Shown: one piece after another, positions 45,741 through 49,332 of the stretch
How positions within the stretch are numbered: the stretch's first letter is position 1
Layout: the number at the start of each line of letters is the position of its first letter
NCBI GenBank assembly: GCA_030295235.1
Contig: AP026123.1
Span: 248,001 to 312,000, forward strand
DNA from: Fistulifera solaris
Lineage: Eukaryota
Reading direction: 5' to 3'
Length of the DNA: 64,000 nucleotides
The notes under the pieces: model-generated
Told to the model about the DNA's origin: nothing
The model's database searches: none
What the model saw: only the letters and a program-made list of their open reading frames with translations
Translations under genes and position numbers: made by a program

Positions 45741-46282
45741 TCTTATTTCTTATTTCTTCGACGAACTTTTCTGTACTGCCGTTTTTTCTGCCGTTATCCC
45801 TCGACGCGACTTCCAGTTCAGCGCTAAGCGAGTACGGAGTACGATTCTTATTAATGGTGTGGAAGGAAAAACAAGATTCATCAAGAGTCTTTCAATCCAA
45901 TAATCATGACAACATTGCAAAATGCGCGGCTCTGAGCTGTTTGTTGGCAAAATCGACGAAGCTCGATTGCTTTCATCTTTCATTCACGATTTGCGTCTGT
46001 CTGCTCCCCGTTTGTTTAGTAGTTACTCCGTAGTAGTTAGTAGGTGAAAAAAAGGAACACGGAATTTTGTTCTTTGAGTACCGGATTCTCACGCCGGCCA
46101 CCCCACCCGGCACGCGAAACTGCATGGAGTGGCGCACAGAGAACCTCGACGTACGCGAACGAGGGCGGCAAAACGACAACGTGCGTGTTTTTGTCTCCCG
46201 ATCTTTCCGTTGCGTGTCATCAACTCCAATCATCCTCGGTTTCAAACGTTCAAAGCACTTGTTTTACTTACAAGCGCGAACC

Positions 46283-48306
46283 ATGGTATCTTCTCCATTC
46301 AAACCTGGCAAGTTTCTAGCCGCGATTGCGGTCGCTTCGGCGATTGCCCAGACGGCAGCTTTCTCTTCTCAAGGGTAAGAATTTTGAATGGCGCAACATT
46401 GTCGGCATTCGGTTTGCCGTTCATCTCCGAGTACTCGGTCATTTGACTTGTTTTCTAACAAAACCCGTTTTAATTTGATTACATTTGCAGACGTTTCCCT
46501 CTATCCGTCTCGAATGCTCGCTCGTTCGTTCAGCCGAAACCTGTCGGCTTCGCGCCCATCACATCCACATCTTTGGAGGCCCATTTGAGTGACAATGCGT
46601 CCCAGACAGTCCCCTCGAAGCGCCGTGTCGCTGCCAAGGTACGTTATGTGTGCTTTACAAGAGTACTACACACTCGCTATATGATCCTCTCAACACATTA
46701 CACCTAATTTTGGAATACAGATTCTCAGTAGGGTGGCATTCGGTTTCTGCTCTCTCGCTCTCTTGCACATGGCAACGTTGGAACCTGCCAATGCTGCCCG
46801 AAAGGCCAAAAAAGCTGTGGAAGTCCCTTTGCACCTCGGACAGAAAATTGCCAACTACTTTCGTACCTTTGGAATCCCTGATCTAGGTGTTCTTACTATC
46901 ATCTCCGCTTTGCCCATTGTCGAGCTTCGTGGAGCTATTCCAGTCGGCATCTGGATGGGTCTACCGATTTCCAAAGTCTTGCCCGTTTGCATATTGGGAA
47001 ACATGATTCCGATTCTCCCTCTTCTTTTGTTGCTCCGAAACAAGACCTTGAAAAACGCCATGAATCCTATTCTCACTCAGGCTGAGAAGAAAACGAAGGA
47101 ACTTGGTATCGGTTCGGTTCAAAAGCAATGGGCTTCTCTTGCTACCTTTGTTGGTATTCCCTTGCCGGGAACTGGTGCCTGGACGGGTGCCATGGGAGCC
47201 TTCTTGCTCGGTATGCCTCTTGCGGTTGCCTTTACCTCGATTTTCGCCGGTGTTGTTTCGGCGGGTGTGATCATGACCGCCATTACCCTTGCTGGAAAAG
47301 CTGGTGGAATCGCCGCTCTTGCCGCCTTGTTGCTTTATGCCGGTATTGAGCTTTCCAAAGGCGGTTCGTCGAGTGGCAAACAAGACTTTTTGGAAGCCGA
47401 ACCGTACTGGGATCAGACTAACGTCCCCGTCAATGTCTACAAGAACAAGGCTCCTTTCGTCGGAAAGGTCATCTCTACGAAGCGAATCGTCGGTCCCAAG
47501 GCAACGGGTGAGACGTGCCACATTATCATTGACCACAAAGGCGATTTCCCGTACTGGGAGGGACAATCCTGGGGTGTCATTCCGCCCGGTGTTCGTGAAA
47601 GGACGGAAAGCCGCACAGTGTGCGTCTTTACTCGATCGCCTCTTCCCGTTACGGTGATGACATGACCGGAAAGACCGGAAGTCTTTGCGTGCGTCGTGCC
47701 ACTTACTGGTGCCCGGAGTTGAAGGCGGACGATCCCGCCAAGAAGGGTATCTGCTCCAACTTTTTGTGTGACACCAAGCCTGGAGATGAAGTTCAAATGA
47801 CTGGCCCCGCTGGTAAAGTGATGCTTCTACCGGAAGAGAACCCGAGCACGGACTACATCATGGTGGGAACCGGAACGGGTGTTGCTCCCTACCGTGGCTT
47901 CATTCGAAGATTGTTTGTCGAGAACACTCCCGCCGCCGCAGCCTACAAGGGACAAGCCTGGTTGTTCCTTGGTGTTGCCAACAGCGACGCTCTCCTTTAC
48001 GACGACGAGTGGCAAGCGGTCAAAAAGGATCATCCGGAACAGTTCCGTTTGGACTATGCACTCTCTCGTGAACAGACGAACGCCAAAGGCGGTAAGATGT
48101 ACATTCAGGATAAGATTGAAGAGTATGCGGATGAAGTGTTCAACAAGCTTGAGAATGGTGCCGTCATTTACTTCTGCGGTCTCAAGGGCATGATGCCTGG
48201 AATCCAGGAGATGCTTGAGACTGTTGCCAAGAAGAAGGGTATCGATTACGAAGAGTGGATCAAGGGCCTGAAAGCTAAGAAGCAGTGGAGAGTTGAGGTT
48301 TACTAA
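46283..48306 (+). CDS. petH: Plastid-targeted fusion: Sm_multidrug_ex membrane domain + ferredoxin-NADP+ reductase
   Basis: Exons 46283-46374, 46491-46638 and 46721-48306. [14 protein letters not shown] and [14 protein letters not shown], then in frame the FNR motifs [53 protein letters not shown] and VEVY*. A 1-nt shortfall in the A-run near 47600 lies inside FNR. Confidence 0.9.
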
Positions 48307-49332
48307 GTTGACCGGTATATTAACTTCGACGCTAAAAGAAGAATTACTTGTCCAGTAAATTCACATCTTTCTTTGTTACTTCCTGTCTCGTAAGCTATGT
48401 ATGCATTTGTAGCAATTAGTTAGATGGTATCGGGATTTCGGAGACGTATCTTTTTTGACGAGCAAGTAGGCGAAAACACGAATATGGCACAATCCATTTA
48501 GTTGATATGTGCGAAAGACGGCTAAGTTTTTCATAATTTTAATGAAAATTCATTAGTCTAGTCGCATCACCTCTTCGAATTCAGTCCTCTTCCTTCAGGT
48601 CTCAGTTTCGTCATGTGATAGTCTAGTGGTCGATCCTCCCTAGAGATGAGTACCGTTCGGCTTTAACACAAGCTGCAGTCAGCATCATTCTGACGTTTCG
48701 CAACTAAATCGACTTACGTCAGCATGACGTGGTCCACGCTGGCAGTAGTACACAGTGTAAAAGGATTTTTATCGAAGATGACGTAAGCTGAAGATTGTTA
48801 CGACTGAATGACGTATGACGTAAAGTAGAACACACACTCGCTCAAAAAGTAGACGTCAGTCATTTCCCCAGCAAAAACTCCCCCTCGGAAAATCTAACGT
48901 GTTTTGAAATCCAAATAATGTACTCTCACACCAATAGTAACGTCCCTTCAACGCTTTTCACGTGACCGGGAGCTTTTGGCGGGGGCGGAAAGCTTGAACC
49001 CGAAAACTGCCGGAACTCGCTGGCGTTTGTTGGAGTGTGCTTTGGATTGTAGGGAGGACGGATCTGCCGCTCGAAGAAAAAGACCGTTGCATCTTTCGGC
49101 TCTCCAAGAGCCAAGGAAGCCATCGTTGATGCTTCTTTCGTCTTCATAAATCGCTACTCCGTGTCTGGACTGCCGAGGTAGTCATTCGTTCGAAATCGCA
49201 TTGACCATCATTCAATCAAAGCTATTTGTTCCATCATTTGAGAATCAATCGCTTTGCTTTCATAAAAAGAGTCATCGCTTAGCCCTTTTCAACACAATAC
49301 AAGCTCTGCCTGCAAGCCATCCCAAGTTCACC

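Follow-up and report, generated by a model that had tools for sequence, protein, structure and literature searches.

A 64,000-nucleotide stretch of the Fistulifera solaris genome (contig AP026123.1, positions 248,001 to 312,000; hereafter the window) contains a gene, at window positions 46283-48306 on the forward strand, that joins a multi-pass membrane protein of the PF06695 (Sm_multidrug_ex) family to a complete ferredoxin-NADP+ reductase (FNR) in one reading frame. The locus is probably an intact nuclear gene whose product is a single plastid protein. We consider it likely that this protein is a covalently membrane-tethered FNR isoform facing the stroma, in which the PF06695 module stands in place of a presequence. 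A covalent membrane anchor for FNR had been proposed in an initial annotation, and it is the best-supported reading, given the topology of the flanking helices and a paralogue that keeps the anchor helices alone. Only this single FNR is encoded within the window, and all features described below lie on the forward strand.

Splicing of 46283-48306 with removal of two introns gives a protein of 608 amino acids. Exon 1 (46283-46374) starts with the ATG at 46283 and encodes a signal peptide of the endoplasmic reticulum (ER) type, with Phe directly after the predicted cleavage site (AQTAA/FSS); it ends in codon phase 2. Intron 1 (46375-46490, 116 nucleotides, GT at 46375 and AG at 46490) is followed by exon 2 (46491-46638), a transit-peptide-like region ending in the basic stretch SKRRVAAK, and by intron 2 (46639-46720, 82 nucleotides, GT at 46639 and AG at 46720). 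Exon 3 (46721-48306) ends with the TAA stop codon at 48304-48306. The stop-to-stop open frames run from 46685 to 47665 and then from 47599 to 48306, shifted by one base. Residues 1-373 of the public F. solaris record P0395 (608 amino acids, named ferredoxin--NADP+ reductase) match the spliced translation up to 47599 letter for letter, so that removal of the introns reproduces this part of P0395 exactly, and residues 374-608 match the frame starting at base 47599. Since the spliced window equals P0395, the exons, order of parts, motifs and coordinates proposed in the initial annotation are correct.

Diatom plastid proteins have a bipartite presequence, consisting of an ER signal peptide with Phe after the cleavage site and a transit peptide. 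Judged by hydropathy and motif reading, the protein has the bipartite presequence of a nuclear-encoded diatom plastid protein. A hydropathy peak at residues 9-29 (the signal peptide) is followed by AA/F, 'AF' appears in the consensus of 65 aligned fused-family proteins, and the AlphaFold confidence score (pLDDT) is below 50 at residues 26-75, the transit region. A second F. solaris homeologue, P0001, is also 608 amino acids long and differs from P0395 at 13 of 608 residues, nine of them in the presequence. The initial annotation had left room for the fusion being already annotated and characterised. It is annotated in public databases, for both F. solaris homeologues and for many other diatoms, under the plain FNR name. 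As to characterisation, we found no description of a PF06695-FNR fusion or of a transmembrane diatom FNR in the literature searched, subscription journals and bioRxiv supplements lying beyond the search.

Downstream of the transit region the protein has a hydrophobic segment of 25 residues (46721-46795), which by hydropathy may be either the first of the flanking membrane helices (TM0) or a thylakoid-type signal that is cleaved off, with a basic n-region, Pro and AxA; a low-confidence model helix covers residues 73-99. This segment is also present in stand-alone algal PF06695 proteins and in the short anchored (b-type) FNRs described below. The membrane module, residues 119-293 (46835-47359), was delimited by Pfam, by AlphaFold and by 21 invariant columns in 65 sequences, and contains the PF06695 match at 46922-47272. 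The fusion junction, placed by comparison with relatives and by a bridging contig, is the polar linker SKGGSSS followed by G and K (47375-47380) before QDFLEA, together 47360-47380. The complete FNR (47381-48303) comprises an N-terminal stretch common to soluble diatom FNRs, FAD and NADP domains and a C terminus ending in VEVY, as seen with Pfam, Foldseek and motifs, and includes the NAD_binding_1 match at 47860-48207. The PF06695 match in the window piece (E 3.6e-31, 108.7 bits; 107-108.7 bits including P0395; cut-off 30.7) covers profile positions 1-121 of 121. NAD_binding_1 scored 86.6 bits in the window piece (E 2.3e-24) and 84.2 bits in P0395 against a cut-off of 22, while FAD_binding_6 stayed below its cut-off in both (14.9-16.7 against 21.1 bits). 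When P0395 was scanned against Pfam at E up to 1, these three domains alone were found, with no linker domain and no PF09335.

No stop codon separates the two halves, and the open frame 46685-47665 runs through the junction. We compared contigs of four public sequencing runs with window positions 46200-48400; one of the four, X6, contributed no contig. A contig of one run, X2, covering 47179-47458, bridges the junction and is the sole contig with more than 31 letters on each side; contigs of runs X1 and X3 overlap at the junction without individually bridging it. The continuous frame, the X2 contig and the conserved architecture thus bear out the proposal that the fusion is in frame with no stop at the junction. 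The distance from the GG after helix 247-271 to the QD at the start of the FNR half is 22-55 residues (median 25), of which about 16 are the last helix, in 62 of 98 fused relatives, namely those that fitted the regular expressions used.

The single break in the frame lies within FNR, about 215-240 nucleotides downstream of the junction depending on whether this is placed at 47360 or 47381. At 47598-47600 the assembly reads gAAAgg, and comparison with P0395 and with the run contigs (AAAA or AGAA) indicates that one base is missing: base 47599 is needed twice to yield P0395, so the window lacks one base. An X1 contig (47554-47757, 205 letters) has an extra A behind 47597 and otherwise 0 differences from the window, and an X2 contig (203 letters, from a metagenome) has an extra G behind 47598 and four other differences. 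Either added base restores the sequence GVREKDGKPH found in P0395 and in every relative. The frameshift is therefore an assembly error, and not the mark of a pseudogene. The initial annotation had recognised the break as a homopolymer frameshift, and the extra base in X1 and X2 identifies it as a homopolymer artefact. X1 carries the same organism label as the best-matching run; as it is perhaps source data of the assembly, it is not fully independent, whereas X2 is. No RNA run was listed for the locus; X1 and X3 are labelled 'RNA?', yet the X1 contig 46282-46927 keeps both introns, and the runs were therefore read as DNA, which is silent on splicing and expression. A one-base homopolymer undercall in an otherwise intact and conserved gene can thus mimic a pseudogene, and other frameshifts of this assembly are equally suspect.

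Of the words sampled from the locus, 80% recur in X2, which is a wetland metagenome, and its contigs differ little from the window. Among the differences are the loss of 3 bases at 46233, ahead of the ATG, and changes that look synonymous. The wetland seems to be home to a very close relative or to one of the two subgenome donors.

The FNR half was compared with solved structures using Foldseek. The best match was maize root FNR (5vw2; E 1.6e-31, target TM-score 0.77), with 60-62% identity over 290 columns, compared with 46-49% identity to leaf FNRs and 42-44% to cyanobacterial FNRs. The initial annotation had described a complete FNR of the plastid type; it is indeed complete, with the correction that it is nearer to the maize root enzyme than to leaf FNRs. 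Signature residues of FNR are RLYSIAS, GxCSNFLC, GTGxAP and, at the C terminus, an aromatic residue stacked on the flavin. All of these could be read in P0395, the last in the terminal VEVY, and the motif YFCGLKGM is present as well. With NAD_binding_1 above its cut-off, a two-domain fold and the signature residues, the half has the features of a plant-type FNR, and nothing in it suggests a dead enzyme.

An AlphaFold2 model built from 65 aligned sequences was confident over residues 119-293, with pLDDT above 90 over most of 121-290 (means of 10-residue blocks, 82-97). The model has a short helix (119-128), a helix-break-helix (134-143 and 148-158), a long helix (163-185), two short helices (188-207), a second helix-break-helix (213-225 and 233-242), and a helix (247-271) followed directly by another (273-293). 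Residues 294-325 have no predicted structure, and FNR follows; ahead of the module the helix at 73-99 is modelled with low confidence. In terms of predicted elements the order is amphipathic helix, re-entrant loop 1, TM1, amphipathic helix, re-entrant loop 2, TM2 and an extra helix, TM3. The 21 columns invariant among the 65 aligned sequences include PLPGTG and ELRG.

This predicted order agrees with that of the DedA superfamily, in whose domain the series amphipathic helix, re-entrant loop and transmembrane helix occurs twice, as an inverted repeat (10.1101/2020.12.18.423352, 10.1101/2020.06.27.174763). The relation of PF06695 to DedA rests on these two papers, in the parts of them that were available. 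According to the first, PF06695 belongs to the superfamily together with TMEM41B and VMP1, as a separate clade without the two DedA sequence motifs (10.1101/2020.12.18.423352). Arabidopsis NP_178363 and a Thalassiosira oceanica protein are named among the members, which are membrane transport or lipid-handling proteins (10.1101/2020.12.18.423352, 10.1101/2020.06.27.174763). In the model of the diatom protein, a transmembrane helix follows each of the two re-entrant loops, and the whole forms a predicted inverted repeat. The initial annotation stated that the family has no established function, which is partly outdated now that the family has been placed in the DedA superfamily (10.1101/2020.12.18.423352). 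TMEM41B has a pseudo-inverted repeat flanked by one additional helix at either end, with both termini on the same face, in the available text, and the diatom model has the same order of elements. In contrast, no member of the superfamily was reported as fused to a flavoenzyme in the literature examined, and the word 'ferredoxin' occurs 0 times in the accessible text of 10.1101/2020.12.18.423352.

No solved relative of the membrane module was found by sequence, the best match (E 0.36) being to an unrelated protein. When a model of the stand-alone module (m83ebe90776a7) was compared with 48,161 chains using VIA-align, no match reached Z of at least 8. The best fold matches, to TRAP, SLC13, VcINDY and YdaH (Z 5.7-4.0, root mean square deviation about 8 Å), are within noise for helical models. 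All are transporters with two facing helical hairpins, which agrees with the re-entrant-loop picture, though at scores within noise.

The closest relatives of the membrane half that lack FNR are stand-alone plastid PF06695 proteins, namely Arabidopsis At2g02590 and proteins of Fibrocapsa, Choristocarpus and Octactis. These share the module with both flanking helices (41-47% identity) and an N-terminal presequence, but end where the diatom protein goes on into FNR. Three papers were found to mention At2g02590 by name, but none of them is a study of that locus.

In the arrangement that we propose, both ends of the core would lie on one side of the membrane, and a flanking helix at each end would put the N and C termini on the opposite side. 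TMEM41B has the same end-to-end arrangement, with a topology that was measured, according to the available parts of the two papers (10.1101/2020.12.18.423352, 10.1101/2020.06.27.174763). As FNR needs ferredoxin and NADP+, the side of the termini would be the stroma, and a stromal-facing FNR is most likely, by analogy and from substrate need. The enzyme would then be held at the stromal face by two stretches, a polar spacer of about 7-10 residues and the roughly 25 residues at its own N terminus, and a membrane-fixed pool of FNR would be kept beside the separate soluble FNR. The thylakoid is favoured because the first hydrophobic segment resembles a thylakoid-type signal, with basic residues, Pro and AxA; the presequence thus looks tripartite, with the thylakoid as its destination. 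We regard the thylakoid as the somewhat likelier membrane and the envelope as a possible but less probable one. In b-type FNRs the segment ahead of the position of the core is under the helix threshold of the hydropathy analysis.

Published proteomic data bear on this location. A plastid fraction of Thalassiosira pseudonana kept thylakoids and lost most stromal proteins, as far as described in the available part of the paper (PMC6683858). In its supplement table, 'PF' is entered for the PF06695 model Thaps3a_4586 and the b-type Thaps3a_4914, and 'No' for the soluble FNR 25892 and for ferredoxin (PMC6683858). From the table as available, which lacks the column heading, we infer that 'PF' means detected in the plastid fraction. 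The double similarity of the T. pseudonana model is remarked in this table without comment (PMC6683858). Although the printed model Thaps3a_4586 ends in a stop soon after the last helix and has no signal peptide, it carries the name FNR (PMC6683858). Either the gene model was truncated at both ends or the fusion has been split secondarily in this species. Cryo-tomography of T. pseudonana thylakoids revealed stromal densities on photosystem I, fitted by the authors with ferredoxin and two FNRs, in the accessible text (PMC8331139).

The initial annotation had suggested a search across diatoms for both families on one protein. With the first 293 residues of exon 3 as query and the 8000 candidates sharing most words with it scored, PF00175 and PF06695 occurred together in 98 of the 106 matching proteins of 514-2000 amino acids. 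Such fused forms were found in raphid pennates (Fistulifera, Seminavis, Epithemia, Nitzschia and a source name legible as 'Pseudo-' only), in polar and radial centrics (Chaetoceros, Ditylum and names legible as 'Leptoc', 'Dacty' and 'Coreth' only) and in the bolidophyte Triparma strigata. For nine entries the source is an MMETSP transcriptome, which means that one assembled transcript covers both halves in these species. The divergent environmental members P0098 and P0261 have Triparma-like insertions.

In an exhaustive search of cluster representatives, 2812 relatives had E up to 0.001. Matches to the membrane half among the top 150 were mostly stand-alone PF06695 proteins or fragments. The nearest named stand-alone relatives of the membrane half come from the raphidophyte Fibrocapsa (302 amino acids), the brown alga Choristocarpus (282) and the dictyochophyte Octactis (272); they align from the hydrophobic segment ahead of the core to the last helix and end within a few residues of the junction. 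Soluble diatom FNRs have a signal peptide ending in ASAF, about 15 residues and then KQDFLEA.PYWDQ, as after the fusion linker; their presequence before KQDFLEA is about 34 residues. These alignments suggest that an entire plastid PF06695 membrane protein has probably taken the place of the targeting presequence of FNR. Because the proteins are fused in diatoms and Triparma and stand alone in the three other ochrophyte groups, the fusion appears to have arisen in the common ancestor of diatoms and bolidophytes.

To relate the fusion to other forms of the enzyme, we took the best 120 among relatives of this half that have 129-412 amino acids and classed them by the sequence preceding FLEA in the FNR half, using patterns and, for 36 rows left as 'other', inspection by eye. 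Twenty were cut-off pieces of the fusion, 19 were of the soluble type and 44 were of the b-type (30 by pattern and 14 by eye, including P0314, P0335 and P0372); the remaining 37 were not classed (27 without the motif, seven too short and three unclear). The b-type proteins are widespread in diatoms, have about 410 amino acids and a short N-terminal region in which a conserved P.AA.AAKK..VVET.DNTKK sequence lies between two hydrophobic stretches, and lack the PF06695 core. The full-length representative P0314 (411 amino acids) begins with a signal peptide with SAAF, a basic stretch and a mildly hydrophobic segment ending in P.AA.AAKK, and continues with VVET.DNTKK, a Gly/Ala-rich hydrophobic helix, QDFLEA and FNR.

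When profiles of 28 b-type N termini and of 45 fused proteins were compared, they aligned in two collinear blocks. One (E 2.8e-7, probability 93%) reaches into the first few residues of the core, and the other covers the last helix and the linker (E 3.3e-7) and takes in the shared QDFLEA. The reversed control gave E 0.42. In a pairwise BLASTP comparison of a b-type N terminus with a fused protein, identity was 50% over 46 residues at E 1.9, and no match was obtained between the b-type profile and 54 diverse stand-alone PF06695 proteins (E 0.034). On the two collinear blocks, the b-type corresponds to the fusion without its core, and it looks like an FNR with a hairpin or single-pass anchor that arose when the fusion lost its core. 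In one Bacillariaceae genome assembled from a metagenome, a fused (P0063) and a b-type (P0340) protein occur together, and the T. pseudonana protein table lists all three forms, as far as this supplement was available (PMC6683858). As diatoms also have a soluble FNR, the fused protein would be one isoform and not the sole FNR. The possibility that the short anchored FNR is an alternative product of the same gene was considered and rejected, since the window has no exon bearing the short form's own motif.

A tree of the FNR domain with 38 rows mixed fused, short-anchored and soluble forms by lineage, with 13 of 35 inner branches unresolved. This mixing could reflect gene conversion, repeated origin or too little signal. 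P0328 and P0337 (inserted junk) and P0100 and P0103 (spurious tails) were left out, and P0274 was kept despite an internal duplication. The outgroups were two long branches that meet, and no order of events was drawn. P0274, a soluble-type FNR from a Corethron transcriptome, repeats about 62 of its residues exactly (DIIMVA...AKAKAP twice), which is most likely an artefact of transcript assembly.

Several observations weigh against a stromal, membrane-anchored isoform. The last helix is weakly hydrophobic in several species and fell below the threshold in two of the three fused proteins tested (P0021 and P0096); should it not span the membrane, FNR would be on the other side. The positive-inside rule leaves the orientation undecided because basic residues flank the helices on both sides. 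Sidedness and choice of membrane are inferred. The Arabidopsis relative At2g02590 appears in a list of candidate transporters of the plastid envelope, in the available part of that study (PMC2246286), and this favours the envelope over the thylakoid. Thaps3a_4586 as printed in the accessible supplement stops a few residues after the last helix, without the FNR half (PMC6683858). The runs that cover the locus keep introns, read as DNA and provide no F. solaris RNA or protein support. In the FNR-domain tree, the fused, short-anchored and soluble forms do not fall into three clades of their own. Lastly, clusters of the soluble form are larger, with 102-380 member sequences compared with 1-28 for the fused form, a hint that the latter is a minor isoform.

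Other accounts of the locus were weighed. One is that the two halves are functionally coupled, the PF06695 core being a transporter, lipid scramblase or quinone-handling module that is driven or gated by FNR, with the two families sharing a pathway also where they are unfused. The core is conserved far beyond the needs of an anchor (21 invariant columns in 65 sequences, PLPGTG, ELRG), and the fusion has been retained since before the split of diatoms and bolidophytes. Relatives in the DedA superfamily handle transport or lipids, in the available parts of the papers (10.1101/2020.12.18.423352, 10.1101/2020.06.27.174763). However, these invariant residues also occur in stand-alone relatives that lack FNR, and so reflect the family's own function; other PF06695 fusions are non-redox, with a large unrelated N-terminal part in P0104 and an arginyl-tRNA synthetase in P0106; and the diatom paralogue dropped the core but kept the flanking helices and FNR. 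Since that lineage lost the core yet kept helices and enzyme, anchoring would be the selected property, and the core-less paralogue favours an anchor over a redox-coupled transporter. We found no supporting evidence for the suggestion in the initial annotation, by Rosetta-stone logic, that the membrane family acts in electron transfer; it is weakened by this paralogue, and coupling appears unlikely. A more specific form, in which an active DedA-like core handles a lipid-soluble redox carrier or ion that is fed or gated by the attached FNR, seems quite unlikely. It would be either a route from ferredoxin or NADPH to plastoquinone for cyclic flow or a redox-gated lipid scramblase. If this were true, the fusion would also point to the function of the uncharacterised PF06695 proteins that stand alone in plastids of plants and of other algae.

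The fusion might instead be a polyprotein precursor for joint import, cut in the linker by a stromal or thylakoid peptidase to give soluble FNR and a free PF06695 protein. Ahead of mature FNR, the fusion has the sequence KQDFLEA with which the transit peptide of soluble diatom FNRs ends, and since the region is common to both forms a processing site could have been retained. The T. pseudonana model of the membrane half also ends at this point, in the available supplement (PMC6683858). But the short anchored forms keep KQDFLEA too, which may just be part of the mature enzyme; as a carrier the short form would be pointless, and diatoms already encode a soluble FNR with its own presequence. We judge such a precursor very unlikely. 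That the locus is an artefact or a dead gene, through a misassembled junction, a merged gene model or a real frameshift in a pseudogene homeologue, is scarcely credible. The window as assembled does contain the frameshift, and of two homeologous copies one could decay. Contigs from two runs of two studies nevertheless restore the frame, the X2 contig 47179-47458 spans the junction, the homeologues differ at 13 of 608 residues alone with nine of these in the presequence, and the architecture is common to 98 relatives, nine of them from transcriptomes. A covalent, stroma-facing membrane anchor for one FNR isoform thus remains the likely reading.

Comparison with other tethered FNRs shows what is distinctive about the diatom protein. 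In vascular plants Tic62 and TROL likewise hold FNR at a plastid membrane, facing the stroma and beside a soluble pool, but they are separate tether proteins that bind the enzyme non-covalently through a Pro/Ser-rich repeat, whereas the diatom enzyme is joined by a peptide bond to a multi-pass protein of another family. The Pro/Ser-rich FNR-binding repeat is limited to vascular plants, according to the accessible text (PMC1847441). The eustigmatophyte enzyme is also a stramenopile FNR with its own N-terminal tethering device, and docks on photosystem I, but through a soluble extension of 43 residues bound to PsaB, PsaD and PsaL, with no membrane helices and no PF06695; in the available part of the paper its authors restrict this extension to eustigmatophytes (10.64898/2026.08.10.743057). 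In Chlamydomonas an engineered PSAF-FNR chimera links FNR covalently to a thylakoid membrane protein, with the outcome that linear flow went down and cyclic flow up, as summarised in the accessible portion of PMC13322767. According to the same source, the location of FNR in plants and green algae affects cyclic and linear electron flow (PMC13322767). The chimera is man-made, has a photosystem I subunit as partner and replaces the free enzyme, whereas the diatom fusion is natural, has another partner and exists beside soluble FNR. Cyanobacterial FNR has an N-terminal phycobilisome-linker-like (CpcD-like) domain, which is soluble and fixes the enzyme to phycobilisomes. There, too, an extra N-terminal domain fixes FNR to a large photosynthetic assembly, but no linker domain was detected in P0395 by Pfam at E up to 1. 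The natural peptide-bond fusion of FNR to a multi-pass DedA-superfamily protein, together with the derived two-helix version, is a different solution to a known tethering problem.

Other N-terminal additions were seen during the searches. P0105 (722 amino acids, from the green alga Elliptochloris) joins peptidase M20/M28 domains to FNR and P0106 (756 amino acids) joins arginyl-tRNA synthetase domains to PF06695; both may be merged gene models rather than true fusions. Among FNRs, P0099 (567 amino acids) has a signal peptide and about 270 Lys/Glu-rich residues with repeated KQKRLMYEQ, P0102 (591 amino acids) a coiled-coil-like N-terminal region and P0236 (500 amino acids) an Ala-rich region. 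N-terminal add-ons to FNR seem to be common in red-lineage algae.

The position of FNR is thought to set how the electrons of photosystem I are shared between NADPH production and cyclic flow, and diatoms account for a large share of marine photosynthesis. In the literature searched, we found no description of how diatoms hold FNR at the membrane. The gene family described here offers a concrete and testable answer: the diatom set would comprise one soluble FNR and two covalently anchored ones, carried on a full DedA-like protein or on its two-helix remnant, and provides three knock-out targets for the study of cyclic electron flow. An anchored FNR may account for the stromal densities seen in situ on diatom photosystem I, as far as these are described in the available text (PMC8331139). 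The diatom fusion would thus be a natural counterpart of the PSAF-FNR chimera, and it gives a first functional handle on the plastid PF06695 proteins.

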